From an uncultured bacterium (GTDB taxonomy: Bacteria > Fermentibacterota > Fermentibacteria > Fermentibacterales > JCC-6): a DNA stretch of 64,000 nt. A program made the translations under genes and the position numbers. The notes below the pieces were generated by a model. It was not told the origin of the DNA. It searched no databases and saw nothing but the letters and a program-made list of their open reading frames with translations. Location of the stretch: positions 1,963-65,962 of the forward strand of contig CBDUZS010000004.1 in assembly GCA_965371785.1 (NCBI GenBank). The letters run 5' to 3'. Below, piece by piece: positions 9,967-64,000 of this stretch; the first letter of the stretch is position 1, and every line of letters starts with the position of its first letter.

Positions 9967-9971
9967 GGAGA

Positions 9972-27136: not shown

Positions 27137-27146
27137 GGCCAGCTCC

Positions 27147-32085: not shown

Positions 32086-32939
32086 CCCTGATCACCTCCC
32101 TCGTTACACTTGCAGCCGCTTCGCGAGTAGTGATCCATGGCCTGTGATTCATGCTCGATGTATGAACTGAGCCTCAGTGTAAGCTCGTCGAAATCGACTC
32201 CGTGTCCGTCGAATTCAGGGCCGTCTACGCATGCGAATTTCGTCTCGCCGTTGACCGTGACGCGGCAGCAGCCGCACATGCCGGTACCGTCTATCATTAT
32301 CGGGTTCAGGCTCACTACCGTAGGGATACCGAGCTCCTTGGTGAGCAGACTTACGAATTTCATCATAACCGGGGGACCTATGGCAAACACCTGATGAATC
32401 TTCTCGCCCCGGTCCGAGACCATCTGGATTGCATCCGTGACAAGCCCCTTCATTCCGTAGCTTCCATCATCAGTGGTGATAATCACTTCGTCGCTGACAC
32501 CAGTCATCTCCTCTTCGAGGATAAGGAGATTCCGGGAACGGGCGCCGAGAATGCTGATAATCCTGTTGCCTGCCTCCTTGAGAGCCTTCGTTATCGGGTA
32601 CAGGGGAGCGTTGCCGATACCGCCTCCCACGCACAGAACGGTACCTACCTTCTCGATATGTGTTGCTTTGCCCAGAGGTCCGGTAACATCGGGTATGGAA
32701 TCACCCTCTTCGAGCCTGGACATCTGAACGGTGCTCTTCCCGACAGCCTGCACTACGAGCGTTATCGTTCCCTCATCGGGATCCGAATCAGCGATGGTGA
32801 GCGGGATTCGTTCCCCTTCTTCACATATTCTCACGATAACGAACTGACCCGGTTTTCTGTACCTGGCGACTTCAGGCGCGGTTATCCTGTACCTGTGGAT
32901 ATCCGGTCCGAGTATTTCCTTGGATACGATCACATGCAT
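32079..32939 (-). CDS. nfnA: NfnA / SudB-like FAD + [2Fe-2S] subunit (PyrK-like fold)
   Basis: The start is ATG 32939 (MHVIVSKE) with GGAGGTG RBS. The track's 32957 is rejected. Motifs CVGGGIGNAPL and CGCCRVTVNGETKFACVDGPEF. Confidence 0.75.
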   Translation of the reverse strand: MHVIVSKEILGPDIHRYRITAPEVARYRKPGQFVIVRICEEGERIPLTIADSDPDEGTITLVVQAVGKSTVQMSRLEEGDSIPDVTGPLGKATHIEKVGTVLCVGGGIGNAPLYPITKALKEAGNRIISILGARSRNLLILEEEMTGVSDEVIITTDDGSYGMKGLVTDAIQMVSDRGEKIHQVFAIGPPVMMKFVSLLTKELGIPTVVSLNPIMIDGTGMCGCCRVTVNGETKFACVDGPEFDGHGVDFDELTLRLSSYIEHESQAMDHYSRSGCKCNEGGDQGC

Positions 32940-33015
32940 ATCTGGGGCACCTCCCACAATGATGAATCACCGATCTTTCTCCGGTCGAGTGCGGGCTGGA
33001 AACAGAAAAAGACCG

Positions 33016-33039: not shown

Positions 33040-33099
33040 CAGTGTATGTAAATATCGAACAGGATCTCCTCCGTAAACGTTCATTAAAAGATGCGATTC

Positions 33100-33198
33100 G
33101 CCTTCTCATTCCGTCTGCTCGAAACCAGCCGATCGCTTAAGCATAACTCCTTTACCCGATCTTCCGTCAATCATCACTTTCACCGGATATTCGAGCAT
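33100..33198 (+). repeat. ~100-nt direct repeat copy A: relic 3' end of a PPDK_N-family gene on the minus strand (partner at 36400..36498)
   Basis: The shared core CTACCCGATCTTCCGTCAATCATCACTTTCACCGGATATTCGAGC is identical in both copies. On the minus strand it encodes LEYPVKVMIDGRSGKGVMLKRS, which matches the C-terminus of the 36403..39384 protein. Confidence 0.7.
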
Positions 33199-33372
33199 GA
33201 ACGGATCTGCTTCGAGGATGGCTGTCTCTTGACCCGCCAGCGCCGTCGGGGCATCTACAGAGAGCGGCACCAGATCCTCACACACCATCCGGAAGGATCG
33301 ATATTGAGGGACAGGAATCTCGACCGCATAGCAGGCAAGCGGGGAACCGACCCGATACCCCTCTACTCGCTA

Positions 33373-36399: not shown

Positions 36400-36498
36400 T
36401 TTTCATTCGATCCGCTCGAGATCAGACGATCTCTTGAGCATTACTCCTCTACCCGATCTTCCGTCAATCATCACTTTCACCGGATATTCGAGCCTGAT
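36400..36498 (+). repeat. ~100-nt direct repeat copy B, forming the genuine 3' end of the minus-strand gene 36403..39384
   Basis: See copy A; about 90% identity over ~95 nt. Confidence 0.7.
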
Positions 36499-39384
36499 GC
36501 GGCGCACATATTTCGTTTCCTCCACCGCAGGATTACAATCCAGCCAATCCCAGTCGATAGCATTGCCCTCCCGTACATGTGAGACCGAAAAGTAGCCAAC
36601 TCCGAGTGAGGTCATGTTCTGGAAGAAATGAGAGCCCTGAGAGGGTTCCACGTTCATATTTGTAAGGCTTACCTCGACAATCGAGGTCGCTCCGCAGATC
36701 TGGCTCCAGGTGACCGGTATACCCAGCCAGGAATCCGCTGATCCCCATCGACCGGGACCTATGAGGATGTAGGGAGTTCCAGCCGAGAACAGGCTGCTGT
36801 TCATTCGCGCTATCTCGACTGCGATATCCCGCGTGAGTGAAGCATCGAATGATTCCGGTCGAACGTAGACTATATCATGAATCGAATCGCTGACTCCGTT
36901 TCCGAGAACACTGTCACTCGTGCAGAACACCTGGTCCCTGTCAACGTCGCCGAGATCGACTTCGACCAGCTGCTCCGCCACGACCATCGGTCTGATCTGG
37001 AGAAGGGAGAATGTGGCCGGCAGCGGTTTTCTCCTGCCGAGTTCGACAGCGAATTCGATCTCTACCGGGCATCCCATCGCATGCTCACCCAGCTTCAGCA
37101 GCGTATCCGTAAGAGGGGCAAGCGGAAAGAGCTTGTTCTTGAGCACGTGGGCAAAGTTGATCACCCTTGGGCCTGCCCGGTTGATGCCGTCAACGATCAT
37201 GTCGTTATCGGCATCGTACGTGGAGGCAATGTAGTCGAGTGTCCCATCGGTTTCGGCGGAAGCAAGCTCCCGCGAAACCAGGAACTGATCTTCGTCTTCA
37301 ATGGATCTGTAGGTCGAATGATCCATGCTAATTGCGTAGAATTGCCTCTGGGAATCGTTGAGTGCGCTCCTGATCGTACCAAATTGCGGGAGGATTCTGG
37401 GATACTTCGGAGTGAACCTGAGGGATACCCCACCGTCAACGATTGTCTTCCCGAGCCCCAGGGCAACGTTTACAACTCCATCTTCGGGGTCAGCAGAACC
37501 TGTAGGATAGAAATTATACGAACGCCCCACTCCGGAGAAGTGCGGGTAGAATCCGCCGGGGAATTCGGATCCTGCCACTTCCTGTATCAGTATGGCCATC
37601 TTCTCCTCCTCGATCCTGTGATTCGTCGCCTCGATGTAGGATCGAGCAGCATGAAAGAAAGTGGATGCGTATACGAATTTAATCGAGGCTGCCAGATCGT
37701 TGAACCTCTTGTCGAAGGATATCGAATTATTAGGCAGCATCTTCGTGGTATAAATACCAGCAAATGGTTGACATAGCGCATCTTCCAGAAGACTGGAAGA
37801 TCTAACGGCAAGAGGTGTTCTCACCTCACCCAGGAAATCTCTCAGATCTCCCAGAATGACCGGGGGAAGATCTGCATTCAGAAACTGCCGAATTATGGAA
37901 AGATCTCGAGACGCATCCACAGCGAAACTGAGAAGGTCGTTCTGCATGATGAACTTGTCGAAGATATCGCTCGTTAGCACCAGTGTGCGTGGAATGGTCA
38001 CTGTCACATCCCTGAAACGACTTCCGTCGAAATTCAGGGCGAGTACGCGATCCAGGAATGCAAGGCCACGTCCCTTCCCTCCGATGGAGCCTCTGCCGAT
38101 TCTGCTGAACTGGGCATACTCCCGGTAGAATGTTCTACTGTAGGGAACGATCCTGCCCCTGTAGCTCTCCCTGCGGTATTCCCGGACAATACGGCTTGCT
38201 TCCCTGCGCAGTTCATCCCCGGCTGCACCGGAATCCTCTGTAAGGATATCCAGCCTGTCCGCTAGTTCGAGCTCCGTGTGTGATCTGAGCCATCTCGTCA
38301 TCTCTCCGGAACGGAGAGTAGAGGATACCGCATTCCCCGGGAGTTTATCGAGAGCAATACTCAGTGCTTCCAGGTTCGATACGCTGGTGATGCTCCTGCC
38401 GGAAGTATCTTTGAAAACAAGGCTTCCAAGACAGAACTTGCCTGCGAACTGTTCCCCTATATCTCTGAGCAGTGTTGGCGAACTTTTGGAAACGAATCCG
38501 GTCCCGAGTTCTTCCGCAATCAGTGAGGCATCCTCCTCGCTTGACTGTATCGATACCGGCATGCCCGGAAACCTGGCGCGGACGTATTCTATCAGATGGC
38601 GTCCCGCATCCGGATCGAGAACACCATCTCTCGGGAAACGAAGATCGGTAAAGAGCCCCAGGAGGTGTTTCCCATAATTGTCTACAAGCTGGATGGCTTC
38701 TTCGTAACAGGTGGCGAGAAGAAGTTTTGGCCTGGCCATTGCTCTCAATCTCCTGGAGGAATAGGAGACGTGCCCCTTCACTATCTCGCTTGTCTTGTCC
38801 CGTATCATCCCCAGCAGGCGGTGAATGTATCTCGAGTAGAAGAGGACGTTGTCCTCGACGAGAAGAAGGCTCAGGACACCACCCTGGCCGCTGTCGTGTG
38901 CAGCGTTCTTCATATCCTCTGCGAGCTGGATGATTCCGAGCAGAACTTCGCCATCGCCCTGCCAGAGGAAGACCCAGTCTACGGCATTGGTGTGATCCAG
39001 TGTCATGAACCTCTGCAGCTCGTACGTGTTGTAGGCAAGAACGGCAACGGGTGTGTCCGGTTTGAGTTCCTTCACCTTCCTGCCGAGAGTCACAGAATCC
39101 ATACCCTCTATCTGCATCATGCACACGACCAGATCGAATGGCTCACTCTCCAGCATCTCGAGAGCCTTCTCTCCCCCGGATACCTGGCTGATCGACGGGA
39201 AGTACCCCATCTCGTTTCTGCTGTACCACTGGGCGAGGAGATCGTTGAGTCGCCCATCCTCCTCGAGCATGAAGAAGTCGTACAGGCTGGAGACGAAGAG
39301 CACTTTTCTCACCTTGAACGGCATGAGCTGATGCAGCCTCGAGACGAATCTGCTGTCCAGCTGGAGGGAATCTGCCCCTGGCAC
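36403..39384 (-). CDS. Receiver-domain-fused PPDK_N (PEP/pyruvate-binding ATP-grasp) protein, convergent paralog
   Basis: Pseudo-REC plus REC (LLLVEDN .. LFTDLRF .. SIQSSEED .. VSKSSP). GKGRGLAFLD and VRSSSLLEDALCQPFAGIY. C-terminal ILIGPGRWGSADSWLGIP ... SQGSHFFQN. Confidence 0.7.
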   Translation of the reverse strand: MPGADSLQLDSRFVSRLHQLMPFKVRKVLFVSSLYDFFMLEEDGRLNDLLAQWYSRNEMGYFPSISQVSGGEKALEMLESEPFDLVVCMMQIEGMDSVTLGRKVKELKPDTPVAVLAYNTYELQRFMTLDHTNAVDWVFLWQGDGEVLLGIIQLAEDMKNAAHDSGQGGVLSLLLVEDNVLFYSRYIHRLLGMIRDKTSEIVKGHVSYSSRRLRAMARPKLLLATCYEEAIQLVDNYGKHLLGLFTDLRFPRDGVLDPDAGRHLIEYVRARFPGMPVSIQSSEEDASLIAEELGTGFVSKSSPTLLRDIGEQFAGKFCLGSLVFKDTSGRSITSVSNLEALSIALDKLPGNAVSSTLRSGEMTRWLRSHTELELADRLDILTEDSGAAGDELRREASRIVREYRRESYRGRIVPYSRTFYREYAQFSRIGRGSIGGKGRGLAFLDRVLALNFDGSRFRDVTVTIPRTLVLTSDIFDKFIMQNDLLSFAVDASRDLSIIRQFLNADLPPVILGDLRDFLGEVRTPLAVRSSSLLEDALCQPFAGIYTTKMLPNNSISFDKRFNDLAASIKFVYASTFFHAARSYIEATNHRIEEEKMAILIQEVAGSEFPGGFYPHFSGVGRSYNFYPTGSADPEDGVVNVALGLGKTIVDGGVSLRFTPKYPRILPQFGTIRSALNDSQRQFYAISMDHSTYRSIEDEDQFLVSRELASAETDGTLDYIASTYDADNDMIVDGINRAGPRVINFAHVLKNKLFPLAPLTDTLLKLGEHAMGCPVEIEFAVELGRRKPLPATFSLLQIRPMVVAEQLVEVDLGDVDRDQVFCTSDSVLGNGVSDSIHDIVYVRPESFDASLTRDIAVEIARMNSSLFSAGTPYILIGPGRWGSADSWLGIPVTWSQICGATSIVEVSLTNMNVEPSQGSHFFQNMTSLGVGYFSVSHVREGNAIDWDWLDCNPAVEETKYVRRIRLEYPVKVMIDGRSGRGVMLKRSSDLERIE

Positions 39385-41504: not shown

Positions 41505-43862
41505 CTATCTGGTCAGGTACCCGATTGCCGAGTCGGTATTTCCATCCATGACAACCGACAGGCTTGCTCCATCGGACTCCATGGATACCTGAACTACCTT
41601 GATCTGTTTTGCCAGGTGCTTCGCGCCGGGAACGAGCTTGCACAGCCTGTTCCGTGACTTCATGAAGAAATCCTCGTTGAATATTATGCCTGGTTCGTCC
41701 GGGTACAGCGGCAGGTATATGATTCCCGCTTCGACCAGGTCCTGGAAGAAATGTGTTCCGAAAGACAGATCGGGCATGTACCCCTTCTTCATCCTGGCGA
41801 CTTCGATAAGCATTGCGGTGTTGTTGATGTCGGCGTAACCGACCTTGACGCCGAGTTTGATGTCTCCCCTGCTCCCCCACCTGCCGGGCCCAATCAGTAT
41901 GAATTTCCGCTGAGGCAGAACCTTGTTCAGCCTACCGACAACGTGTCCCACTTCAATGAGTTCTTCGAGACTTTCCAGCCTGTCGTACTCCACAGGGTCA
42001 ACGTAGACGACGAATTCGATGCCTTCACAGATGCCGGATGTAATGTACTTACCGGCGGTGAATACTATGTCCTCCTCGGGAACATCGTCCGGGACGACCA
42101 CCTCTCCGATTTCTCCGGAATAGCTCTGTGGTCTGCACTGGAGCAGGTAGGGAACCTGGATGTCATCGGCGTATGCGAATTCGACGTCTACGGGAACACC
42201 TATTTCCTTCTCCAGTATCTGGAGTATCGTCTGAATCAGCAGAGGGAACGGGCTTCTCGAGAGCAGGCGAGAGAATGTAATGACCGTTTCCTCGTTCTCC
42301 ACGTTGAAAAGGCTTCCCATCGGCGGAGAGAGGTTACCATCTTTGTATAGTGATATGATGTAAGAGAGAACGGGATAACTGCTTCCATGTGCCTTTACGA
42401 GATCGTCGAAGAGAACGGTCTCGAACCTGCGGTTTTCGAGATTGATCACGTCGATATGCTTCTGGGCATATCGAATCGTTTCCTCGGGTGTGACATTCAC
42501 TCTCAGACCCGGCTGTCCGGGGCAGAGAAGCATCGGAAAATCCTGACCCGTCCTGTCCACTGCCCTGGTTCCAAGGCCTGTAACCAGCCTTACTATTCCG
42601 TCCTCGCGCCTGATCCTGGGAGACCACCGGAACTCGTTCCTGCTGAAAGCTACACCTGCAAAAGCGGGGAAGTAGTACTTGCCGACCCGTTTTCCGACGA
42701 CTTCCTGGATGATGATTCCCATTTCCTCGTTGAAATCGAGAAGGCCGCGCTCCCTTCTGTACTCTATCGGGTCGGGACTGAACACACTTGCATAGACTTC
42801 CATTATCGCGTCTGCAAGCGCTTCCAGCCTTTCCATCTTGCTTCCGACGTTGGCGACGAAGAGGCTCTTGTATTTACCCGCAAAGGCAGACCCTACACTG
42901 TCTTCGAGCAGACTGGACGAGCGGACAACGAGCGGTACGTTTCCGAACTGATCGAGCGCAACGTTGAGCCCCGACATTATTCCCGCTGGCAGCAGAGAGC
43001 TCTTGAAGATCTGCCGAAGCAGACTGTACTCCTTTCTAAGCTCATCCGGATCGGAATATTTTATCGACAACAGTTCTTCGAGTGCATTGTGGTGGATGAA
43101 TTCGAAGATGGCATCACTGGATATGTACCATGTTTTGGGGACCTTCAGGTTCCTGAGAACGACGTTGTCTTTCCTGGCGGAATAGGATTCCAGTATCTTT
43201 TTCGCCCTGAACAGACCCGCTGCCTTTCCCCCGAGTCTGCCGCTGCCCGTGGCCGGGCCGATCGTGTGGTCGAGAACCTCGATGAAGTCAATAATTCTTA
43301 CACGGTTCTTGGTCGTGTTGATGTATGTGAGATCGGTACTGAACAGCCTCCTGATGAGAGCGACTCTGATTCCCATGCTCTCTTCCTTGTCGAGCACCTT
43401 GTGTGATTCGGGAAGAAGGGAGAACCTGTCGAGAGCCGCACTGAGCTCGACCAGAGGTACATCTTTCTGCTCTACCAGGATGGAGAGGAACCGTGTGCTT
43501 TCGTACCGGAGCCAGCGGGTCAGCATTGCGGATATCTCGCTCGAGGACAGTTCCTCCTCTGCGATCCTGAAAACCTCGCTGGTGAAGAACTCGATTGCGG
43601 AATGGTTGATCCTCGGCATCGGCTGGTTTTCTCCCCAGGCCGCACCCGTTTCGTAATCGTCAGGACTGTATACCAGCAGGCGTTCCATGACGTCGCTCAT
43701 CTTCTTCACGTTACGTTTGAACAGGTAGTTCATCATCTTCCGGCCAAGACGTTTCATGAGAATGGGATTGGTTTCGCTGAGAAGGCTGACGATCACCTTC
43801 CATTCAGGATCACTTCTCTCAGTGTTTTTCTTCCTGATATCGCGTTTGTCGGCATCGTGCAT
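41505..43862 (-). CDS. PPDK_N (PEP/pyruvate-binding ATP-grasp) domain protein without receiver domains; third paralog
   Basis: GGKAAGLFRA and VRSSSLLEDSVGSAFAGKY. C-terminal ILIGPGRWGSRGDIKLGV ... SFGTHFFQD. 785 aa. Confidence 0.7.
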   Translation of the reverse strand: MHDADKRDIRKKNTERSDPEWKVIVSLLSETNPILMKRLGRKMMNYLFKRNVKKMSDVMERLLVYSPDDYETGAAWGENQPMPRINHSAIEFFTSEVFRIAEEELSSSEISAMLTRWLRYESTRFLSILVEQKDVPLVELSAALDRFSLLPESHKVLDKEESMGIRVALIRRLFSTDLTYINTTKNRVRIIDFIEVLDHTIGPATGSGRLGGKAAGLFRAKKILESYSARKDNVVLRNLKVPKTWYISSDAIFEFIHHNALEELLSIKYSDPDELRKEYSLLRQIFKSSLLPAGIMSGLNVALDQFGNVPLVVRSSSLLEDSVGSAFAGKYKSLFVANVGSKMERLEALADAIMEVYASVFSPDPIEYRRERGLLDFNEEMGIIIQEVVGKRVGKYYFPAFAGVAFSRNEFRWSPRIRREDGIVRLVTGLGTRAVDRTGQDFPMLLCPGQPGLRVNVTPEETIRYAQKHIDVINLENRRFETVLFDDLVKAHGSSYPVLSYIISLYKDGNLSPPMGSLFNVENEETVITFSRLLSRSPFPLLIQTILQILEKEIGVPVDVEFAYADDIQVPYLLQCRPQSYSGEIGEVVVPDDVPEEDIVFTAGKYITSGICEGIEFVVYVDPVEYDRLESLEELIEVGHVVGRLNKVLPQRKFILIGPGRWGSRGDIKLGVKVGYADINNTAMLIEVARMKKGYMPDLSFGTHFFQDLVEAGIIYLPLYPDEPGIIFNEDFFMKSRNRLCKLVPGAKHLAKQIKVVQVSMESDGASLSVVMDGNTDSAIGYLTR

Positions 43863-53658: not shown

Positions 53659-53901
53659 ATGAAAGAAGAGGACAGAAAGAAGATTGAGGAAATCGTTGAC
53701 GGAATGCAGTGTCCCAGAGATTTTATATGCGTGGAGTCCGGTTTCGAGCGTATGTGCCAGGCAAAGGATTTCGGGCTGGAAAGCTACCTGGAATGCCTGG
53801 ATGACAATCCCCAGGGTTGTCCTTTTTCCCTTTCTTTTGGAGAGGGGCACTTCTGCCAGTGTCCATTACGCGTGTATCTCAGCAAGAAACTGAAGAGGTA
53901 G
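53659..53901 (+). CDS. Small Cys-rich protein (80 aa, 8 Cys)
   Basis: GGAGAGTAGGG before ATG 53659. CPRDFIC ... C ... C ... CPFS ... CQCP. Confidence 0.4.
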   Translation: MKEEDRKKIEEIVDGMQCPRDFICVESGFERMCQAKDFGLESYLECLDDNPQGCPFSLSFGEGHFCQCPLRVYLSKKLKR

Positions 53902-54198
53902 TCGAACAAAGCCTGATGACTGCGAGATTCGGCAACTCGATCCATTGATCGGCAGAGTAAAAAGCACTCAGGTCCTGACTAACACATTCATTTGCGACCT
54001 GTTATCATATCTTTCTGAGTTGGGAAAAAGAACTGGAACCTTGTGTCTAGGAGATTCACTCAGTGGAGAAGGTTCAGGTAAACAGAACCCTTCCAGCAGA
54101 TTGCCCTCCATCAGGAGAGATTGAACCCGAATACACATTCAACAGTTTGAACCTCATGTCGCCGTTTATCCTGCAGCGACTGCACGAGGGAGTGTAAA

Positions 54199-54495
54199 AT
54201 GAAGTACTGGCGCAAGCCCCTGGACATCGACAAGGTGAAGATCCCGCACGGTACCGTCACCATCATCGCAGAAAGGTGCAAGGGTTGTGGCTTCTGTGTG
54301 GAGTACTGCCCGAAGGAAGTTCTGGTCATGTCCGAAGAGTTCAATGCAAAGGGTTATCATCCTCCCAAGGTTATCAAGGAGGGCGAATGCGTCAACTGCA
54401 ACCTCTGCGAGATGATATGCCCCGACTTCGCCATCTTCAGCGTTGAATCACCCGAAGAGGAATCACCGGAAGAGTCCGGGAACTCAGAGGAATAA
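54199..54495 (+). CDS. 2-oxoacid:ferredoxin oxidoreductase delta subunit (2x[4Fe-4S] ferredoxin)
   Basis: CKGCGFCVEYCP and CVNCNLCEMICP. The acidic C-tail is typical of PorD/KorD. Confidence 0.8.
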   Translation: MKYWRKPLDIDKVKIPHGTVTIIAERCKGCGFCVEYCPKEVLVMSEEFNAKGYHPPKVIKEGECVNCNLCEMICPDFAIFSVESPEEESPEESGNSEE

Positions 54496-54508
54496 GGAGG
54501 GAATCGCT

Positions 54509-55666
54509 GTGAAAGCAGACCCAGCAGGTGTGCTGACCGGTGTCCACTACCTGGACGGTGACTTCGCTTGCGGTGAGGGCGCGATGGCCGCGGGCTGCCG
54601 TTTCGTGGCAGGATACCCGATCACGCCCTCTACAGAAGTTGTGGAGAGGATCTCGCGGAGATTCCCATTCATGGGAGGAACGTTCATCCAGATGGAGGAC
54701 GAACTGGGGAGTATGGCAGCGGTTGTTGGCGCCGCATGGACGGGATCGAAGTCCCTGACCGTCACCAGTGGACCCGGATTCAGCCTGATGATGGAGAACA
54801 TCGGACTGGCCGCGATGATGGAAACACCCTGCGTAATCGTGAACGTTATGCGCGGGGGACCGTCTACCGGACTGCCGACGATGGTCGGGCAGGCTGACAT
54901 CATGCAGGCGCGCTGGGGTTCTCATGGCGACTACGAAATAATTGCCCTCAGCCCGCAGTCCCCTCAGGAGGCCTTCGACCTCTGCATCGAAGCCTTCAAC
55001 CTCTCGGAGGTCTACAGGGTACCGGTGATGCTGATGCTGGATGAATGCGTCGGCCACATGACCGAGAAGGTAGTGATTCCTCCGGCTTCGGAGATAGAGA
55101 TCACTCCCAGGATACTCTCCTCCAAGAGCCCTGAAGATTACTATCCCTACGATTTCGAAGGGGATTCCATTCCCGAGTTCGTCAGGGCAGGCGACGGGTA
55201 CAGGTTCCACACCACAGGACTGACCCATGACAAACGGGGTTATCCTCTAATGAGCACGGACTGCCAGGAGTGGAACGTCCGCCACCTGATAGACAAGATA
55301 CGGAACAACGTTGACAAGATCACGCGATACGATGAAGAGGATCTCGATGGAGCAGAAGTAGTGGTTCTTGCCTACGGAATCACCTCCAGGGTCACCCGCA
55401 TGGGGATCGACATGGCGAGGAAGAAGGGGGTCAAGGTCGGCTTCATAAGGCTGATCGTTATCTGGCCCTTCCCCGAGAAGCTCATCAGGGACCTCGCCTC
55501 TAAGGTCAAGGCTTTTGTTGTTCCGGAGATAAACTACGGGCAGATAGTGCTCGAGGTGGAGAGGTGCGCCGGGGACAAGGCTGAAGCGATATGCGTACCC
55601 CACGGGGGAGGCAGTGTACACGACCCGGAGTGCATCTGCAAGGCGATCATGGAGGCAGCGAAATGA
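54509..55666 (+). CDS. 2-oxoacid:ferredoxin oxidoreductase alpha subunit
   Basis: GTG 54509 with AAGGAGGG RBS. GYPITPSTE and TSGPGFSLM motifs. Confidence 0.85.
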   Translation: MKADPAGVLTGVHYLDGDFACGEGAMAAGCRFVAGYPITPSTEVVERISRRFPFMGGTFIQMEDELGSMAAVVGAAWTGSKSLTVTSGPGFSLMMENIGLAAMMETPCVIVNVMRGGPSTGLPTMVGQADIMQARWGSHGDYEIIALSPQSPQEAFDLCIEAFNLSEVYRVPVMLMLDECVGHMTEKVVIPPASEIEITPRILSSKSPEDYYPYDFEGDSIPEFVRAGDGYRFHTTGLTHDKRGYPLMSTDCQEWNVRHLIDKIRNNVDKITRYDEEDLDGAEVVVLAYGITSRVTRMGIDMARKKGVKVGFIRLIVIWPFPEKLIRDLASKVKAFVVPEINYGQIVLEVERCAGDKAEAICVPHGGGSVHDPECICKAIMEAAK

Positions 55667-56556
55667 GCGCACCAGAGTCAGGTACAGCAGCAACCGTAGA
55701 GCATCCGATATCACCATACCTCCGGATGGATCGTATTCCCCACATATGGTGTCCCACTTGCGGAATAGGCACCGTCGTCAAGTGTTTCGCAACGGCCCTG
55801 GGAGAACTGGAGATGGACCTGGACAAGTGCGCCATCGTCTCCGGAATAGGGTGTACCGGCCGGGTGGCCGGGTACATGAAACTCGATGCGTTCCACACGA
55901 CTCACGGAAGGGCGATACCATTCGCAACTGGTCTCCACCTGGGCAGACCCGAACTGAATGTTACCGTGTTCTCCGGGGACGGCGACCTGGTGGGCATCGG
56001 TGGTAACCACTTCATCCATGCCGCCAGAAGGAATATCGACCTTCTGGTGATCCTGATAAACAACTTCATCTACGCCATGACCGGCGGTCAGAACGCTCCG
56101 ACGACACCGATCTCTGCAAAGTCATCCACCATGCCCTTCGGCAATTACGAACAGCCGTTCAACATCCCCTACCTCGCTGACTGCTGCGGCGCCAACTACG
56201 TGGCACGCTGGACGAGCCTGCACATAAGAAGGGTTACCAAGGCCTTCAAGGAAGCTCTCCAGAAGAAGGGCTTCCGTCTGATCGAAGTCATAACCCCCTG
56301 CTCCACTCTCTACTCGCGGCTGAACAAGCTTGGATCCGGGCTGGATCTGATGCGTTTCTATCACGACAACGCCGAGATCCGCCATGGAGCCGACACCAGA
56401 GAGCTGGCGATTGACTTCCAGAAGAAGATCATCTGCGGCAAGTTCATCGACAGGGAGAGACCATCCTTCAGTGAAAGCAGGACCGCACACTACGAGAGAA
56501 CGCTCGGAGACAAGTTCGTTCCCATGCCCCCGGATGGGGGGTGGCTCCATGAGTAA
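55663..56556 (+). CDS. 2-oxoacid:ferredoxin oxidoreductase beta subunit (TPP-binding)
   Basis: WCPTCGIG, GIGCTGR and GDGDLVGIGGNH TPP motif. Confidence 0.85.
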   Translation: MSAPESGTAATVEHPISPYLRMDRIPHIWCPTCGIGTVVKCFATALGELEMDLDKCAIVSGIGCTGRVAGYMKLDAFHTTHGRAIPFATGLHLGRPELNVTVFSGDGDLVGIGGNHFIHAARRNIDLLVILINNFIYAMTGGQNAPTTPISAKSSTMPFGNYEQPFNIPYLADCCGANYVARWTSLHIRRVTKAFKEALQKKGFRLIEVITPCSTLYSRLNKLGSGLDLMRFYHDNAEIRHGADTRELAIDFQKKIICGKFIDRERPSFSESRTAHYERTLGDKFVPMPPDGGWLHE

Positions 56557-57148
56557 GAGGATCGAAATACGCATTACCGGGTTCGGAGGACAGGGCGTCG
56601 TGCTCTCAGGTCATATCGTCGGGCGTGCTTTTGCAGTCGAAGCCGGACACCACGCAACCATGATACAGAGCTTCGGTCCCGAAGCACGTGGTTCCGCGTG
56701 CAGCACCACACTCACCCTTTCAGATACCGAGGTGCTCTACCCGTACATACACAGGCCGGACTTCTTCGTCGTCATGTCCTCCGAGGGCTACGACAAGTTC
56801 AGAGACGAACTCAAACCAAAGGGCATCCTGTGCTACGAAAAGGATCTCGTGAAGCCTGAACTGAAAAAGGGCCAGCCCTCCTATGGGATATCCTCGACGA
56901 GAATCGCCGAGTCACTGGGCAGGACTATTGTACAGAACATAGTGATGGTCGGTTTCTTTGCCGCAGCTTCAGGGATCGTCAGCCGTTTACAGATGCGGAG
57001 CTCGGTGGAGCATTCCGTTCCTCCAGGCACGGAGGAGCTGAACCTCAAAGCATTCGACGCCGGCTGGAACTACTTTCAGGAGGAGTACGGCAAGGGGAAA
57101 ACCGGCAGTGCGAAAAAGAAGTCAGCCGGAACGAAGAAGACTGGATAG
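56549..57148 (+). CDS. 2-oxoacid:ferredoxin oxidoreductase gamma subunit
   Basis: ATG 56549 (MSKRIEIRITGFGGQGVV) overlaps the beta-subunit stop. Lys-rich C-terminus. Confidence 0.8.
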   Translation: MSKRIEIRITGFGGQGVVLSGHIVGRAFAVEAGHHATMIQSFGPEARGSACSTTLTLSDTEVLYPYIHRPDFFVVMSSEGYDKFRDELKPKGILCYEKDLVKPELKKGQPSYGISSTRIAESLGRTIVQNIVMVGFFAAASGIVSRLQMRSSVEHSVPPGTEELNLKAFDAGWNYFQEEYGKGKTGSAKKKSAGTKKTG

Positions 57149-57151
57149 CAT

Positions 57152-60100
57152 ATGCAGGACCAAGAAACTGACCGGGATCCGGAGATCATGGAGGAGGAAC
57201 CGGTAGTCGAGAAGAGGGCTCTGGTCATAGGTGGAGGAATTGCGGGCATACAGGCCGCTCTCGACCTTGCGGATGCAAGGATTCCAGTGACCCTCGTGGA
57301 GAGGTCCCCGGCCCTGGGCGGCCGGATGGCTCAGCTGGCCAAGACCTTTCCCTCGATGTACTGCTCCACTTGAATATTCGGGCCCAAGGCCATGGATGCC
57401 GGGCGGCATCCTCTGATCGACCTGGTGACGAATGCGGAGGTCATCGAATGCGAAGGTGACCCTGGCAGTTTCCATGTGAAAATCCGAAGGTATCCCCGCT
57501 ACGTGCTAGAGTCCTGCGTGGCATGCGGCCAGTGCGAGGATGTCTGCCCACAGGTCGGCGGCAACGAGTTCGACATGGGACTCAAGGCCAGGAAAGCGAT
57601 CTACAGACCCTACCCGCAGTCCGTTCCATCTACTTATACCATCGATCCCGATGCCTGCCTCAATTTCATGAGCTTCCTGACCGAGAAACAGAAGCAGAGG
57701 TTCGCGAAAGTTCAGACAGCCAAGCAAAAGAAAGACTCCGACTACGTACCCAACATCCTCGTGTGCGGTCACTGTCAGAAGGCCTGTGACGTGAACGCAA
57801 TAGACTTCGACATGACGGTAGAAGACCTCGAATTAGACGTTGGAGCCATACTGGTCGCTGTCGGCTTCAAGGAGTTCGACGCAAGGAAGCTTGGTAACTA
57901 CGGGTACGGACGCCTGCCGAACGTCGTCACAAGCCTCGAGCTCGAACGCATGCTAAGTCCCGCAGGTGTGACACAGGGTCACGTGGTGCGTCCCTCCGAC
58001 AGAAAGGTTCCGAGGCGCATTGTATTCATCCAGTGCGTCGGGGCAAGGGGTGAGGGCGGCAGACCTTACTGCAGCAGGTTCTGCTGCATGAACGCGGTCA
58101 AGGATTCCATGCTGATACGTCAGCATCAACCAGAAATCGAGGAGATATCCATCCTCTACACCGACCTGCGTGCCTTCGGAAAAGGTTTCGACGACTTCGT
58201 TCAGCGCTCGTTCAACGAGGAGAGTGCCGTGTACATCAGGGGACGACCCGCGAAAGTGGATCACCTGCCCGACGGTGACACGCTGGAGGTCTTCGTAGAG
58301 GACACCCTGGGTCACGAACAGAGACGCATACCTGCAGACATGGTCGTCCTTTCGGTTGCAGCAGCACCAAACGATGGTGCGGTGGAGCTGGCAGGCATTC
58401 TGGGAATAGACACTGACGAGTACGGATTCATCGCCCGTAAAGATGCAGCAATCTCGGCCGTCGAATCCACAAGGGAGGGCATCTACGTTTGCGGGAGTGC
58501 AGTAGGTCCCCAGATAATACCCGACTGCGTTGCGCAGGCGTCGGCATCTGCAGCGAGAGCAGGACTCTACCTTGCTGCACACAGGAAGGAAGAGGAAGAG
58601 AGGAAGGTCGAGCCCATGGACCTCTCCGGTCCTCCACGCGTTGGCGTTCTGATCTGTCATTGTGGGATGAACATAGCAGGCGTGCTGGACATCGAGAACC
58701 TGGTGGACTTCGCATCGACGCTTCAAGACGTTGTCGCCGTGAAGGAAGACATCTTCGCATGCTCCATGACAGGTCAGGACGAGCTGATCGAGATGATAAA
58801 GGAACACGGTCTCAACAGGATTGTTGTTGCAGCCTGTACACCCCGCACGCACGAGCCGGTTTTTCGCGATGCACTCGACCGGATAGGATTCAACCCCTAC
58901 CTGCTGGAGATGGCCAACATCAGGGATCAGTGCTCCTGGGTCCACTCGAAGCAGGTGAACGAAGCACAGGAGAAAGCCAGAGTGCTGATCCACATGAGCG
59001 TGGCAAGGGCAAAGAGACTCGAACCGCTGTACCAGACCGAAGCACCCATGACCAGGGCAGCTCTGGTCATCGGGGGCGGAATCGCAGGTATCCAGGCCGC
59101 AACCGACATGGCCATTCAGGGATTCCACGTAACACTCGTGGAGAAGACGGGCCGGCTCGGGGGACGCCTGGCAGACCCATGTCTGAAGCATCTCTACCCG
59201 AATATGAGATTAGCCTCGGAAGTGCTTGAAAAGAAGACCAGACTGCTCGAAGAAAGCGGTGCTGACGTACTGCTCAACACCGAAGTCGACCGGATAGAAG
59301 GGTTTGTCGGCAGCTTTGAAGTTACGTTCAAGGGAGAAACGACCGGAACGGCACCATTCGGCGCGATAATCATCGCTATCGGAGCAGACCTCTACGAGCC
59401 CGGGGACGGTGAGTTCGGGTACGGGAAGTTCGGCAACGTGATTACAAGCGAGCAACTCGAGAAAGCTTTCTGCAAAGGTGATGAGCTGAAATTCGGTGGG
59501 ATAGAGCCTAAGACCGCATCGTTCATTCTCTGCGTAGGCTCCCGGGAGAGAGACGGTTTCACAGGCTGTTCCCGATACTGCTGCCCGACCGCTATCAAAC
59601 AGGCGATGGAGCTGCACCGTCGGGGGATCGACACGACCGTTTTCTACAGGGACATAAGGACTGTATCCACGGGTGCCGAGGAGATGTACCGGCAGGCCCG
59701 TGGCGAGGGAGTCCTATTCATCAGGATTCCCCCCGAGCAGAAACCGGAGGTAGAGGGCAGAAAGCGGGTCGAGGTCGTCCGATGCTTCGATGACCTCCTC
59801 GGCAGGAAACTGGAAGTACCAACCGACCTCGTTGTACTCAGTGTGGGCATGAGACCCCTTCAGCCCGAGACGGAAACGTTCAAGGAGATGCTCAAGACCA
59901 GCGTCGGACTGGACGGATTCCTGCTCGAACGTCATGCCGATCTGGCACCCGTCGAGACAGTGGTCGAAGGAGTCATGCTGGCCGGGACGGCTCAGGGACC
60001 CAAGGATATCGTCGATTCGGTCGCACAGGCTTCGGCCGCAGCGGCAAAGGCAACAGTGTTCCTGGCGTTCGACAGTGTAAAACTCGATCCGACGATATCC

Positions 60101-60340
60101 GTTGTCAACGAAGAGAAATGCCGTGGCTGCGGTAAATGCCAGGAGATCTGCGACTTCAACGCACCGAAACTCGAAGAGATCGAACCCGGGCTCTTCGTAG
60201 CAAGAATTAATGCTTCCCTCTGCAAGGGCTGCGGAACCTGCGCCAGCTGGTGTCCGTCCGGAGCAATCGTCGCGAAGCACTTCACTGACGGACAGGTATA
60301 CGCGATGATCAGCGCCTTCTTCGGAGAAGAGAGCGTATGA
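57152..60340 (+). CDS. hdrA: Selenocysteine-containing fused 1.5x HdrA-like flavoprotein (in-frame UGA at 57371-57373 read as Sec)
   Basis: ORFs 57152..57373 and 57392..60340 share one frame. Across the UGA the protein reads [26 protein letters not shown], which matches the HdrA motif DCSxC-ILAPKM with Sec at the second Cys. The rest is collinear with 5529..8588 ([15 protein letters not shown]; [15 protein letters not shown]; C-terminal [19 protein letters not shown]). Confidence 0.8.
57394..57411 (+). promoter_or_regulatory. SECIS-like hairpin 21 nt downstream of UGA (GGAUGCC-GGGC-GGCAUCC)
   Basis: Perfect 7-bp stem with a 4-nt loop. Its position and spacing are identical to the second Sec site at 62617..62634. 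Confidence 0.6.
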
Positions 60341-60804
60341 CACCCGCGAAGAAGAGGACCAGCTGGGACCCCTCTATTGTCGTTTTCGCATGCAACTGGT
60401 GCTCCTACGCCGGGGCAGACACGGCTGGGGTATCGCGGTTCGAACACCAGCCGCACTTCAGGATGATAAGGGTGATGTGCTCGGGGAGAATTCAGCCGGC
60501 ATTCGTCTTTCGTGCTTTCGAGAAGGGTGCGGACGGCGTCATGGTTTCCGGGTGCCATTTCGGTGAGTGCCACTACATCTTCGGTAATGAGAGAGCAGTC
60601 GAACAGTTCGAGAAAACGATGAACGTGGTGAAGATGCTCGGAATAGAGGAGGGAAGGCTTCGGCTCGAGTGGATAAGCTCTGCTGAAGGAGCACGATTCG
60701 CCGAGATCATCGACGAATTCACAGACCAGGTTCGTGCGCTGGGTCCGAATCCCCTGGGCGGCAGGCCGGGCGGAAAAATACGCAAGAAGGGTGTTGCAGA
60801 GTGA
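60337..60804 (+). CDS. mvhD: MvhD/FlxD-type subunit
   Basis: CNWCSYAGADTAG, CSGRIQP and GCHFGECHY motifs. The ATG overlaps the hdrA stop. Confidence 0.85.
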   Translation: MTPAKKRTSWDPSIVVFACNWCSYAGADTAGVSRFEHQPHFRMIRVMCSGRIQPAFVFRAFEKGADGVMVSGCHFGECHYIFGNERAVEQFEKTMNVVKMLGIEEGRLRLEWISSAEGARFAEIIDEFTDQVRALGPNPLGGRPGGKIRKKGVAE

Positions 60805-61955
60805 GCAGTCAGAACGCCGGATCGATTCAGGAGCTGGCCAGCAGAACTAGAGCCTGGGCCTGCTACGACTGTGGGAAGTGTACGGCTACATGCCCGATAA
60901 CAAGGGCAGGCGCTGACTACAGCCCGCGGAAGCATGTTCTCGAAACGAACCTGGCTCACATTGAGGAGATCAGGGCCGATGGAAGCCTCGCAGTTTGCCT
61001 TACGTGCAGCCAGTGCGACGAGAGGTGCCCCGTCGAGGTCGATTATACCGGGCTGGTCCAGGGTCTCCGCGAGATGGTCTTCGACCCTTCTGCCGAACCG
61101 GAGTGCCCACACGGCGGTGCTCTCCAGTCCATTATGAGAATGATGGCGCGGGGGGGCACACAGCAGGCCAGACTCGACTGGATCGACGATTCCCTCGAGG
61201 TAAGCGCGAAGAAGGGGAAGGTCTTCTACTGGACCGGCTGCACCATGTACTTCGATGCCTTCTTCCCGGAATTCGAAGTTGCAACTCTGGGGGGAACGAA
61301 AGCAGCTATCCGATTACTCAACGCCCTCGGTGAGAAACCCGTGGTGTCACCAGACGAGAGGTGCTGCGGACACGATCTCCTCTGGAACGGTGACAGAAAC
61401 AGCTTCGAAGCTCTCGCGAAGTACAATATCAGCCTGGTGGAGAAGAGCGGAGCCGAACTCCTGGTTACATCCTGCGCCGAGTGCCTCCGCACGTGGAAAA
61501 TCGACTACAAACCCTACTACAGCACGAATCCACCGAAGATCATGCACATCTCAGAGCTGCTGGCCAACAGAACCGAGGATCTGAAACTGCAGATGACGGA
61601 AGAGAAGAAGGTCACATTCCAGGACCCCTGCCGCATGGGTCGACACCTCGGGATATACGACCCGCCAAGGCAGGTGCTGACCTCCGTTCCAGGCGTGGAA
61701 CTGATCGATATGCCGCGATCTGGTCGAGGTGCAATCTGCTGCGCGGGCGGCACCTGGTCGAACTGCGACCGCTACTCAAAGAAGATCCAGGTGAACCGCC
61801 TCAGGGAGGCCAGGGCAACCGACGCCGAGATACTGGTAACCGCCTGTCCGAAGTGCCAGGTTCACTACCGGTGCGCAATGAATGACCCGAACATCGGAGA
61901 CGATATCGCTATAGAGCTGCGCGACGTAGCAGAGATAGTCGCCGAAGCATTGTAG
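60801..61955 (+). CDS. HdrD-like (HdrC+HdrB fusion-type) protein: N-terminal 2x[4Fe-4S] ferredoxin plus two CCG domains
   Basis: CGKCTATCP and CSQCDERCP clusters. Two CCG motifs: ERCCGHDLLWNG..CAEC and AICCAGGTWSN..CPKC. GTG 60801 overlaps the mvhD stop. Confidence 0.7.
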   Translation: MSSQNAGSIQELASRTRAWACYDCGKCTATCPITRAGADYSPRKHVLETNLAHIEEIRADGSLAVCLTCSQCDERCPVEVDYTGLVQGLREMVFDPSAEPECPHGGALQSIMRMMARGGTQQARLDWIDDSLEVSAKKGKVFYWTGCTMYFDAFFPEFEVATLGGTKAAIRLLNALGEKPVVSPDERCCGHDLLWNGDRNSFEALAKYNISLVEKSGAELLVTSCAECLRTWKIDYKPYYSTNPPKIMHISELLANRTEDLKLQMTEEKKVTFQDPCRMGRHLGIYDPPRQVLTSVPGVELIDMPRSGRGAICCAGGTWSNCDRYSKKIQVNRLREARATDAEILVTACPKCQVHYRCAMNDPNIGDDIAIELRDVAEIVAEAL

Positions 61956-61987
61956 AAGAGTGTTCTGAACCAAGCGAAGGGAGGGTG

Positions 61988-64000
61988 ATGACTCCAGAGA
62001 AGACGGAGGATCAACTGAGGATCGGAGTGTTCGTCTGCGACTGCGGATCGAACATAGCCGGCACGGTTGATACCGCCGCACTCGCCGAATGGTCCAGCAG
62101 CCTGCCCGATGTGGTGTACGTCGGGAGGAACAGGTACTGCTGCGCGGACCCTGGTCAGAACGAAATCAAGGAGGCCATCGCTGAACACCGCCTTGACCGG
62201 GTGGTCGTAGCTGCCTGCACTCCCAGGCAGCACGAGTTCACGTTCAGGCAGTGTGTGAGCGATGCAGGGCTCAACCCCTACCTCCTCGAGATGGCCAACC
62301 TGAGGGAGCACTGCTCATGGGTTCACCGTAAGGACCCCGATGGTGCCAACCTGAAGGCCCGGGACCTGGTGGCGAGTGCAGTCGGGAGGGCTCACTTCCT
62401 CGAGCCGCAGGAGGAGATGACCATGCCTGTAACGCGAAAAGCGCTGGTCATCGGAGGCGGTATCTCAGGGATAGAAGCAGCCCTCGAACTCGCAGATTCA
62501 GGCCACAGGGTGGTCCTGGTGGAAAAGGAGGCATCAGTCGGTGGGATAATGGCACAACTCTACAAGACCTATCCCACAATGGACTGCTCGATATGAATAC
62601 TCGGGCCGAAGGCCATGGATGTCGGTCGGCATCCGAATATCGAGCTTCTGACGTTCTCCGAGATCGAAGAGGTTTCCGGTTACGTCGGTAACTTCACCGT
62701 CAGGATCAGAAAGAAAGCAAGGTACGTAGACCCCGATCAGTGCAATTCCTGCGGGGACTGTGTAGACGTTTGCCCCGTTGCCGTACCCGACGAGTTCCAG
62801 CTGGGTCTATCCTCGCGAAAAGCTATCTATATACCATTTCCGCAAGCGGTTCCCTGTACATACATCCTTAACATGAAGGACTGCCTGGGGAATAACCCCA
62901 TTGCATGCGGTGAGTGCGCAATAGTCTGTGAAAAGGAAGCAATCAACTACGACGACGAGGACGAGATCATAACGCGTGAGGTGGGAACGGTAATAATCGC
63001 CACCGGCCTCGACGTCTACGATCCAACCGAAATGGATGAGTACGGGTACTCTCGGTTCGACAACGTGATCACCTCTATGGAGTTCGAGCGGCTGATCTCC
63101 GCAGGCGGGCCAACTATGGGTCATTTCGTGAGACCATCCGATCAGACGCAGCCGAAACGCATTGGCTTCATCCAGTGCGTGGGTTCGCGAAACACGAAGA
63201 TCGGTAGACCCTACTGCTCCAACATCTGTTGTATGAACACGGTGAAGGACACCCTCCTCCTGGCCGAACACTACTCGGATATCGAGAACAACGTCTTCTA
63301 CCAGGATATCAGGGCGTTCGGAAAGTCCTTCGAGGACCTGTACCAGAGGTCCAAGGAAGCGGGAACCCGCTACATCAGGGGAATACCCGGTGACATAGAG
63401 GAGGATCCCGAAACCAGGAACCTCGTGCTCACCGTGGAGAACACGACTTCCGGGAAACTGGAGCGACATGAGCTGGACATGGTCGTTCTCTCCGTCGGCG
63501 TAGTGCCCTCCGAGGGTCAACAGAAGGTATCGAGCCAGTTCAATCTGTCGAAGACATCTGACGGCTTCTTCATGGAGTCGCACCCCAAACTCAGACCGGT
63601 GGAAGCACCCACAAGGGGCGTCTACTTCGCCGGATTCTGCGAAGCGCCAAAGGACATCAAGGACTCGGTCTGCCAGGCTGGAGCCGCAGCTTCCAAGGCT
63701 GGGGTTCTCCTCAACGCGGGCAAGATAAAGATCGAGGCGATAACCAGCGTTATAGATCCGGACCTGTGCATGAAATGCGGCATATGTGCGAAGGTCTGCC
63801 CGTACGGTGCAATTCACTGGAAGAAGGGTGAGATCGCCACCGTCATAGAAGCTGCCTGCGCCGGATGCGGCAACTGCGGCGCAGCGTGCGCTTTCGGTGC
63901 CATCACAATGCGCCACTTCACCGATGCCCAGCTCATGGCACAGATCAGGGCTATCCTGGCGGAGAATGCAAAGGACAAGGTCTTCGTCTTCGCCTGTAAC
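61988..64000 (+). CDS. hdrA: Selenocysteine-containing canonical HdrA fused to a C-terminal MvhD domain (3'-truncated at window edge; in-frame UGA at 62594-62596)
   Basis: ATG 61988 with GGGAGGG RBS. N-domain RIGVFVCDCGSNIAG. LVIGGGISGIEAALELAD. The motif TYPTMDCSI-U-ILGPKAMDVGRHPNIELL has Sec at the second Cys of DCSxC. Downstream: CNSCGDCVDVCPV, IQCVGSRNTKIGRPYCSNICCMNTVKD, CMKCGICAKVCPY..CAGCGNCGAAC. The last codons KVFVFACN begin an MvhD-type CNWC motif. Confidence 0.8.
62617..62634 (+). promoter_or_regulatory. SECIS-like hairpin 21 nt downstream of UGA (GGAUGUC-GGUC-GGCAUCC; GGUC apical loop)
   Basis: 7-bp stem with one G-U pair. The GGUC loop resembles the bacterial SECIS apical loop. 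It is a near-identical counterpart of 57394..57411. Confidence 0.6.

Follow-up and report, generated by a model that had tools for sequence, protein, structure and literature searches.

The window analysed here, 64,000 nt of DNA from an uncultured bacterium (contig CBDUZS010000004.1), contains towards its end a string of plus-strand genes in which korDABG, encoding a four-subunit 2-oxoacid:ferredoxin oxidoreductase (OFOR), is followed immediately by genes for a selenocysteine (Sec) containing HdrA, the adaptor protein MvhD and an HdrD-like protein. A genetic link between this OFOR and an Hdr module with a CCG-domain protein had been proposed from the window alone. It is real and evolutionarily conserved: korD and korA are located directly upstream of the Hdr genes on the same strand in 59 out of 63 homologous loci with an upstream flank of at least 3.6 kb, and because of this synteny the adjacency is not a matter of chance. 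It is well supported that Kor and two HdrA-type bifurcation modules constitute one functional unit, and the proteins probably form a physical multi-enzyme complex. The complete gene set, korD-korA-korB-korG-hdrAA(Sec)-mvhD-hdrD-like-hdrA2(Sec, MvhD-fused)-Zn-ribbon-hdrC-hdrB, can tentatively be regarded as one conserved operon of eleven genes, the window being cut within the eighth.

Scanning the fused HdrA encoded by hdrAA against one genome per species yielded 78 loci with 63-74% identity, distributed over about ten phyla. Carriers are Acidobacteriota (Sulfomarinibacter, Holophagae, Thermoanaerobaculia), Planctomycetota (Phycisphaerae, Planctomycetales), Latescibacterota, Gemmatimonadota, Zixibacteria, Eisenbacteria, Myxococcota (Myxococcales/'Deltaproteobacteria'), Chloroflexota (Anaerolineales) and others. 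According to tblastn with the window proteins, the gene order given above, with the Zn-ribbon gene as an optional member, is the one dominant architecture and applies to most of the 78 loci. A kor gene directly precedes hdrAA in 69 loci (median gap about 50 nt, range -26 to 294 nt), and the four loci without upstream korD and korA represent either paralogous second copies or a copy that is truncated. On the downstream side, mvhD together with the hdrD-like gene was found in 45, hdrA2 in 44 and hdrC/hdrB in 46 of the 49 loci with a flank of at least 9.5 kb.

Several variants of this architecture exist. In five loci (L015, L018, L029, L033 and L007) korG is located behind hdrB, so that all Hdr genes are enclosed by Kor genes. 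In L069, L071 and probably also L063 and L068 the cluster is reduced to a short form, in which korDABG is accompanied only by a fusion of hdrAA with MvhD and by an hdrCB fusion. Second copies of the fused HdrA gene, in tandem or nearby, i.e. between hdrAA and mvhD or downstream of the cluster, are present in L003/L060, L042/L052, L065 and L067. The pairwise distance matrices of Kor and Hdr proteins are correlated (Mantel r 0.44-0.82, p = 0.001), and the mean divergence of the cluster proteins is merely 18-34% between metagenome-assembled genomes of different phyla. Both observations fit transfer or retention of the cluster as a block, and sequence comparison suggests that the whole cluster spread horizontally and recently. 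A plasmid was considered as the vehicle across phyla and discarded, as there was no close match to any plasmid.

In the window, korD (OFOR delta subunit, 98 aa, with two [4Fe-4S] clusters, identified by profile search; 54199..54495) is the first gene of the string. After 13 nt follows korA (alpha subunit with YPITP motif; 54509..55666), which has a GTG start and the ribosome binding site AAGGAGGG. The ATG start of korB (beta subunit, binding thiamine pyrophosphate (TPP) and a [4Fe-4S] cluster; 55663..56556) overlaps the korA stop codon (ATGA), and korG (gamma subunit, ATG start; 56549..57148) overlaps korB by 8 nt. All coordinates of the original prediction read as given in the sequence, including the 3 nt between the korG stop TAG (57146-57148) and the ATG of hdrAA (57152..60340), and the proposed overlaps of the two following genes were confirmed, too: mvhD (155 aa, ATG start; 60337..60804) overlaps the hdrAA stop by ATGA at 60337, and the hdrD-like gene (GTG start; 60801..61955) overlaps that of mvhD by GTGA at 60801. 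All these genes lie on the plus strand with spacings from -8 to +13 nt, and we infer that the string is co-transcribed. A terminator or an independent promoter between korG and hdrAA, which would have separated the two gene groups, was looked for by a consensus scan, and none was found on the plus strand; neither type of site occurred on this strand anywhere in 54199-63544. Promoter- and terminator-like sites are not more numerous than in shuffled sequence, and their absence from the junctions is therefore weak negative evidence. Upstream of korD, where a promoter or terminator had been sought as well, the scan returned its sole plus-strand promoter-like match, a sigma-70-like site with an extended TG (CTAACA-18-TATCAT, 53979..54008), which is weak for the same reason.

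The cluster does not end with the hdrD-like gene at 61955, as originally assumed. After a gap of 29 nt, a second Sec-HdrA gene, hdrA2 (61985..64000, plus strand), begins; it enters its C-terminal MvhD domain at the window end and continues beyond. The remainder of the cluster was read from a metagenome contig (L001, 99.8% identical over 3664 nt) which was found via a look-up with mvhD; an exact look-up of the HdrD-like protein matched no contig. Past the window end this contig encodes the rest of the 818-aa HdrA2, the Zn-ribbon protein, HdrC (167 aa) and HdrB (299 aa). With U replaced by C, the full-length HdrA2 of this contig passes the NCBIfam HdrA2 model NF040770 (1132.6 vs. a cut-off of 1100). 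HdrB and HdrC remain below the cut-offs of the CoB-CoM equivalog models (286 vs. 345 for TIGR03288 and 107.5 vs. 160 for TIGR03290, respectively). The Zn-ribbon gene (positions 4561-4710 of the contig, about 45-50 aa) shows an FmdB-type CxxC...CxxC arrangement with the consensus FRCMMCGHEY..EDKERSCPKCRSNSIRHL. It was overlooked by gene callers, and 60 related loci carry it in the interval from hdrA2 to hdrC; its product is probably an extra subunit.

The flanks of the related loci were searched for conserved genes of electron donor modules (electron transfer flavoprotein (ETF), hydrogenase, Fdh, Flx), and none was found. Recurrent flank genes were limited to three types. In 40 loci the gene of a MarR-type regulator ending in a Cys-rich tail is positioned directly upstream of korD; it is absent from the window. 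A GNAT-ferredoxin protein is encoded in the flanks of 22 loci, and in 16 loci a two-subunit KorAB, separate from KorDABG, is encoded upstream of the cluster. Immediately 5' of the kor genes the window contains an open reading frame for an 80-aa Cys-rich protein (53659-53901, plus strand) without Pfam or NCBIfam match. It does not occur in the related loci, which have the MarR-type regulator with its Cys-rich C-terminus.

The label HdrA, originally assigned to the hdrAA product, is right insofar as the protein is an HdrA-type flavoprotein; it is, in fact, a 1062-aa fusion of two HdrA units in permuted order. Alignment to the HdrA of Methanothermococcus (5odc_A) produced four blocks: residues 19-170 and 203-419 correspond to HdrA 142-510 and represent the first unit, similar to thioredoxin reductase (TrxR), including the inserted ferredoxin domain; residues 494-666 correspond to HdrA 3-175, i.e. 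the N-terminal domain and the start of the Rossmann fold of the second unit; residues 875-1058 correspond to HdrA 470-651, i.e. the end of the TrxR unit and the C-terminal ferredoxin domain. This mapping indicates the permuted fusion. The protein contains two Rossmann motifs for flavin adenine dinucleotide (FAD) as well as [4Fe-4S] motifs. Unit 1 carries the pair C71-x-x-U74, and its Lys317 aligns with Lys409 of 5odc_A; unit 2 retains the Cys...CC...Lys motif (K816) and lacks the CxxC pair. None of the cofactor residues and cluster ligands varies among 76 homologs. Thus, all hallmarks of an HdrA are present (TrxR-like FAD domain, CxxC/U, C...CC for a [4Fe-4S] cluster, the Lys at flavin N5, an inserted and a C-terminal domain with two [4Fe-4S] clusters each), together with those of the BamE type, known to us by description, namely two permuted TrxR units with the CxxC pair in unit 1 only.

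A basic insertion of 28-32 aa in the inserted ferredoxin domain (57662-57760, residues 171-203) occurs in about 55 of the 76 homologs and is missing from the others and from a paralog linked to Flx genes. We rejected it as a hallmark of Kor docking, since about 20 Kor-linked homologs do without it. Elsewhere, the fused HdrA scaffold is N-terminally fused to an NAD(P)H-type GltD module or encoded beside FlxDCBA. The two smaller partners in the window are typical of their families: MvhD shows the FlpD domain (PF02662, 6e-51) with the Cys ligands of the [2Fe-2S] cluster of MvhD/FlxD adaptors, and the HdrD-like protein, of the HdrC-HdrB fusion type, contains the CxxCxxCxxxCP motif twice as well as two CCG domains, each with five Cys.

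The assignment of Sec to HdrA was corroborated. The frame of hdrAA running to 60340 contains one in-frame TGA (57371..57373), which occupies the place of the second Cys of the canonical HdrA CxxC motif and is a TGA in 77 of 77 sequences (76 of 76 homologs and the window). In hdrA2 the corresponding TGA (62594..62596) is present in 64/64 sequences. Both are followed after 20 nt by a hairpin, GGAUG(C/U)C-GGUC-GG(C/A)CAUCC, which lies at 57394..57411 in hdrAA (GGAUGCC-GGGC-GGCAUCC) and at 62617..62634 in hdrA2 (GGAUGUC-GGUC-GGCAUCC), all on the plus strand. The six inner pairs are canonical in 75 of 76 (hdrAA) and 59 of 59 (hdrA2) distinct sequences, and the loop is GGUC throughout, the sole exception being hdrAA of the window (GGGC). 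This copy also differs in its peptide context, SMYCST-U-IFGP instead of the TMDC(A/S)I-U-ILGP of the 75 other distinct homologs (57359-57411). In the hairpin, the codons GAT, CAT and GGT hardly vary; their share of the synonymous sets in the remainder of these genes is 29%, 22% and 14%, respectively. A compensatory change from a C-G to a U-A pair was detected in 3 (hdrAA) and 9 (hdrA2) sequences. An in-frame UGA at a conserved Cys, a hairpin within about 16-37 nt and a G in the apical loop are thus all found, and by this comparison the hairpin is a bacterial selenocysteine insertion sequence (SECIS). Rfam at gathering thresholds reported nothing for the 64-kb window, and ARAGORN found no tRNA in it; neither tRNA-Sec nor sel genes were found within the 64 kb. 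The evidence for the SECIS element therefore comes from the comparative analysis described here.

The Kor proteins show the features of a four-subunit OFOR, i.e. two [4Fe-4S] clusters in the delta subunit, POR_N with YPITP in alpha, TPP_enzyme_C with GDG...NN and Cys ligands in beta, and a POR domain in gamma. The alpha subunit passes the generic OFOR model NF006412 (548.7 vs. a cut-off of 411). All scores for equivalog models of 2-oxoglutarate:ferredoxin oxidoreductase (OGOR) stay below the cut-offs (OorA-type 369 vs. 579, OorB-type 225 vs. 364, OorC 83 vs. 216, OGOR_delta 67 vs. 125); this also applies for korD, whose top models are OGOR_delta and OorD. Nevertheless, the highest scores of all four subunits are those with OFOR models of the Oor/OGOR or the generic type, and the subunits score far lower with models of the oxidoreductases for pyruvate (POR), 2-oxoisovalerate (VOR) and indolepyruvate (IOR), e.g. 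225 vs. 60 and 52 bits for beta and 369 vs. 283 and 109 bits for alpha. The best solved relatives are the alpha subunit of a Pyrococcus '2-keto acid' enzyme, which is uncharacterised, and 2-oxoglutarate synthase (8ys5), with 1yd7 and 8ys5 closest to korA.

Our best guess from these comparisons is 2-oxoglutarate as the substrate, and KorDABG may be placed, with caution, in the 2-oxoglutarate clade of four-subunit OFORs (Oor/KGOR). The neighbouring sucCD, fumAB and gdhA genes, which had been taken as pointers to this substrate, do not carry the assignment. They are real, but located 6.7-14.6 kb upstream behind three minus-strand genes, and all 78 related loci lack them up to a distance of 10 kb from the cluster. 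With this weak neighbourhood argument, the OGOR-like assignment rests on profile scores below curated cut-offs. An OFOR not specific for 2-oxoglutarate, acting on other 2-oxoacids (pyruvate, branched-chain or aromatic) from amino acid fermentation, would agree with the generic NF006412 being the only model passed, with the uncharacterised Pyrococcus enzyme as best solved relative and with the second OFOR often adjoining the cluster. We consider this rather unlikely, judged independently of the readings of the Kor-Hdr link, because the Oor/OGOR-type scores are far above those for POR, VOR and IOR in all four subunits.

With regard to electron flow, we cautiously prefer KorDABG as the electron-input module of the Hdr unit. 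The TPP site would oxidise the 2-oxoacid together with CoA, and electrons would pass via the [4Fe-4S] clusters of KorB and KorD to the [2Fe-2S] adaptor MvhD and from there to the bifurcating FAD of the first HdrA unit, beside the C71xxU74 pair and Lys317. One electron would then proceed over the non-cubane clusters of the CCG proteins (HdrD-like protein, HdrBC) to a high-potential acceptor, presumably of the disulfide or ETF type, and the other one over the ferredoxin domains to ferredoxin or to the second module, HdrA2. In the short form there are just three redox ports (OFOR, CCG protein and ferredoxin domains), which makes the OFOR the sole candidate donor. In characterised HdrA/MvhD systems, the donor is the variable enzyme beside MvhD. 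Furthermore, the host is most likely a Fermentibacterota-like anaerobic fermenter, which counts for Kor as input; OFORs in anaerobic fermenters normally run oxidatively. The best named relatives of the SucC of the window belong to Ca. Fermentibacteria/Aegiribacteria (67-73% identity), the identity falling to 58% outside these groups, and a Fermentibacteria protein is among the best matches of hdrAA. The class II benzoyl-CoA reductase (BCRII) receives its electrons through BamGHI, the module in the corresponding position (bioRxiv 10.64898/2026.04.10.717634); by analogy, this and the variable scaffold partners GltD and FlxDCBA suggest the same role for Kor.

Taken further, the cluster could encode a self-contained super-complex of a novel kind, in which a TPP-dependent OFOR, making or breaking C-C bonds, is hard-wired to a BamE-like fused Sec-HdrA dimer and to a second Sec-HdrA module, the two being coupled hierarchically. 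Anaerobes of many sediment phyla would thereby couple 2-oxoglutarate/succinyl-CoA plus CO2 directly to a thiol/disulfide couple or ETF without free ferredoxin. We put this forward as a possibility, with more reserve than the assignment of the input role itself.

Several points weigh against Kor as electron input. The couple 2-oxoglutarate/succinyl-CoA (about -500 mV) is already at ferredoxin potential, so that its use as donor for bifurcation would be wasteful unless the low-potential product were unusually negative, and KorD could simply reduce free ferredoxin. A library-wide search yielded relatives of the fused HdrA, and none of the seven long ones inspected (1110-1404 aa) was a Kor-Hdr fusion protein; their extensions are GltD-like or polyferredoxins. 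Moreover, Fwd in methanogens and BamBC in BCRII, both hard-wired to the ferredoxin domains of HdrA, consume low-potential electrons (bioRxiv 10.64898/2026.04.10.717634), and in the published model for the kor-hdr-flx cluster of tubeworm symbionts OGOR is the acceptor (PMC6315080, PMC11636981).

The strongest alternative retains the complex and reverses its wiring. KorDABG would then be on the low-potential branch, in the position of BamBC or Fwd, and carboxylate succinyl-CoA reductively to 2-oxoglutarate or, run backwards, provide the low-potential electron in a confurcation; a mid-potential donor or acceptor encoded elsewhere (NADH via Flx, H2, formate) would dock at MvhD. The general thermodynamic logic of flavin-based bifurcation is in favour of this wiring, and BCRII sends low-potential electrons from the inserted ferredoxin domain of its fused HdrA to the catalytic module (bioRxiv 10.64898/2026.04.10.717634). 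For tubeworm symbionts and Thioflavicoccus, with the order hdrC-hdrB-korD-korA-korB-korC-hdrA-flxDCBA, direct delivery to OGOR was proposed and intergenic co-expression was observed (PMC6315080, PMC11636981). The window has its own hdrAA'-flxDCBA set (5496-11845), the nearby sucCD, fumAB and NADP-type gdhA would fit a reductive branch to glutamate, and the separate two-subunit KorAB just upstream of the cluster in 16 loci argues for a division of labour. On the other hand, none of the 78 loci encodes a donor module in or beside the cluster, and in the short form MvhD is the only free donor port. The hosts are mostly heterotrophic anaerobes, no autotrophy marker was seen in the flanks, and sucCD, fumAB and gdhA are missing from all related loci. 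The reversed wiring appears somewhat unlikely.

Less probable still, and in our view doubtful, is a mere co-expression of separate enzymes, in which the OFOR would pass its electrons to free ferredoxin, and the Hdr modules would use this ferredoxin to reduce a disulfide. HdrA2B2C2 reportedly has ferredoxin:heterodisulfide activity, and hdrA2 of the cluster passes the HdrA2 model with the score given above. KorD is an ordinary delta-ferredoxin subunit without added domain, and the lack of Kor-Hdr fusions among the seven long relatives is in line with separate enzymes. However, the strict gene order across phyla, the displacement of korG behind hdrB and the apparent transfer as a block are more than one usually finds for enzymes linked solely by a diffusible carrier, and the cluster contains no ferredoxin gene. 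Finally, a chance neighbourhood of two operons, or TGAs that are true stops or lesions of pseudogenes, for which the absence of tRNA-Sec and sel genes from the window might be cited, is effectively refuted by the synteny of 59/63 loci, the TGA at the canonical CxxC position in all 77 and 64 sequences, the fixation of rare codons by a hairpin with compensatory changes, and the FAD Rossmann fold of unit 1 encoded 5' of the TGA.

The closest published parallel is the korABCD / flxABCD-hdrABC / tfrAB cluster of the reductive tricarboxylic acid cycle in the tubeworm symbionts Ca. Endoriftia and Escarpia symbiont and in Thioflavicoccus mobilis (PMC6315080, PMC11636981). Compared by gene order and description, the genes of a four-subunit OGOR-type OFOR directly precede hdrA in both clusters, and that of an MvhD homolog (FlxD) comes next; hdrC and hdrB lie within the cluster, a second, two-subunit KorAB is encoded elsewhere, and the authors proposed a bifurcation wired directly to OGOR. 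In contrast, the cluster described here lacks the NADH module FlxABC, TfrA and ATP-citrate lyase and contains instead a fused Sec-HdrA dimer, the HdrD-like protein, a second HdrA2 module and the Zn-ribbon gene. Its hosts are heterotrophic anaerobes of other phyla.

A permuted fusion of two HdrA units is described for BamE of BCRII in a 2026 preprint (bioRxiv 10.64898/2026.04.10.717634). By description, BamD-BamE-BamF resemble the trio of the window in the permuted double HdrA of about 1000 aa, whose bifurcating FAD site contains a CxxC-type pair and a Lys, the MvhD-type adaptor, the CCG protein of the HdrD/HdrCB-fusion type as high-potential exit and the presence of Sec within the module. They differ in the order (E-F-D here, D-E-F there) and in the partner, an OFOR instead of the tungsten enzyme BamBC; BamGHI is missing, and homologs of bamB, bamC, bamG, bamH and bamI were not seen in the cluster or its flanks. 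Moreover, MvhD of the window is a short protein of 155 aa, in which a Cys stands at the position of the Sec of BamF. Unlike in BamE and BamD, the second FAD site keeps the Cys...CC...Lys motif and both CCG motifs keep every Cys.

The Mvh/Fdh-HdrABC-Fwd complexes of methanogens (PDB 5odc, 7bkb, 8rvu, 9sfi) share Sec at the same CxxC position of HdrA, the MvhD adaptor and the CCG clusters of HdrBC, and they have a CO2-handling enzyme at ferredoxin level hard-wired to HdrA, as would be the case here. The cluster is bacterial, however, its attached enzyme would be an OFOR, and CoM and CoB are not expected, with HdrB and HdrC below the CoB-CoM cut-offs. The second module resembles HdrA2B2C2 of Methanosarcina acetivorans (NF040770) in its 818-aa HdrA-MvhD fusion passing the cut-off and the following hdrC and hdrB genes, whereas Sec, the inserted Zn-ribbon gene and the Kor operon setting are peculiar to the cluster, and F420 is not expected. 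As for Kor, OorDABC of Helicobacter pylori and the four-subunit KGOR (2-oxoglutarate oxidoreductase) of Thermococcales have the same delta-alpha-beta-gamma order, similar subunit sizes and the YPITP and GDG...NN motifs and are the best profile and PDB matches, but Kor remains below the equivalog cut-offs, and the two enzymes have no link to Hdr.

Each element is already known singly: OGOR genes co-localised with Hdr genes, a fused HdrA, an HdrA2BC module and Sec-HdrA. For the conserved eleven-gene cluster combining an OFOR with a BamE-like fused Sec-HdrA/MvhD/HdrD trio and HdrA2-HdrCB in about ten phyla, literature searches brought up no account of this exact combination; OGOR next to Hdr genes was noted for the tubeworm-symbiont cluster and, in passing, for Zixibacteria RBG-1. 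Known partners of HdrA-type bifurcation are hydrogenases, formate dehydrogenases, NADH modules, formylmethanofuran dehydrogenase and the tungsten ring reductase. The attachment of an OFOR by a conserved and horizontally mobile cluster would add an enzyme of central carbon metabolism to them. The cluster could explain the balance between ferredoxin-level and thiol-level redox pools, or a reductive synthesis of 2-oxoglutarate, in abundant uncultured sediment lineages such as Sulfomarinibacter, Phycisphaerae, Latescibacterota, Zixibacteria and Fermentibacterota. If the super-complex exists, heterotrophs would use bifurcation to fix CO2 into 2-oxoglutarate, or else a 2-oxoacid would drive the generation of electrons below ferredoxin potential. 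Comprising eleven genes, or six in its short form, the cluster is a compact target for heterologous expression and cryo-electron microscopy.

Counting the Hdr genes, redox proteins of the bifurcation type take up much of the window. A second Hdr cluster (1066-11845, plus strand) begins with an HdrA-like gene (1066-2778) and genes for two Fe-S proteins (2798-5039). Its 1030-aa fused HdrA dimer (5496-8588, plus strand) has Cys instead of Sec and is 40% identical to and collinear with the Kor-linked hdrAA product. Downstream are genes for MvhD/FlxD (about 8600-9000) and for FlxC-, FlxB- and FlxA-like proteins (9001-11845), giving an NADH-type hdrAA-flxDCBA set; a CCG protein was not seen among the annotated open reading frames of this cluster. 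The following plus-strand region (12378-17637) encodes a 1493-aa HdrL-like protein, in which a GltD-like NAD(P)H module is fused to HdrA units, and a DUF1847 protein. On the minus strand (23462-32957) there is a gene for a 1244-aa protein with 2Fe-2S/HoxU-like, GltD-like and NuoG/Fdh-alpha-like parts, beside that of a NuoF-like protein, and an NfnAB/SudAB-like pair (30619-32085 and 32079-32957). Three large proteins with a PPDK_N/PEP-synthase-like ATP-binding domain are encoded at 33091-36303 (plus), 36403-39384 (minus) and 41505-43862 (minus); none gave a full family match. A response-regulator receiver domain is additionally present in two of the three.

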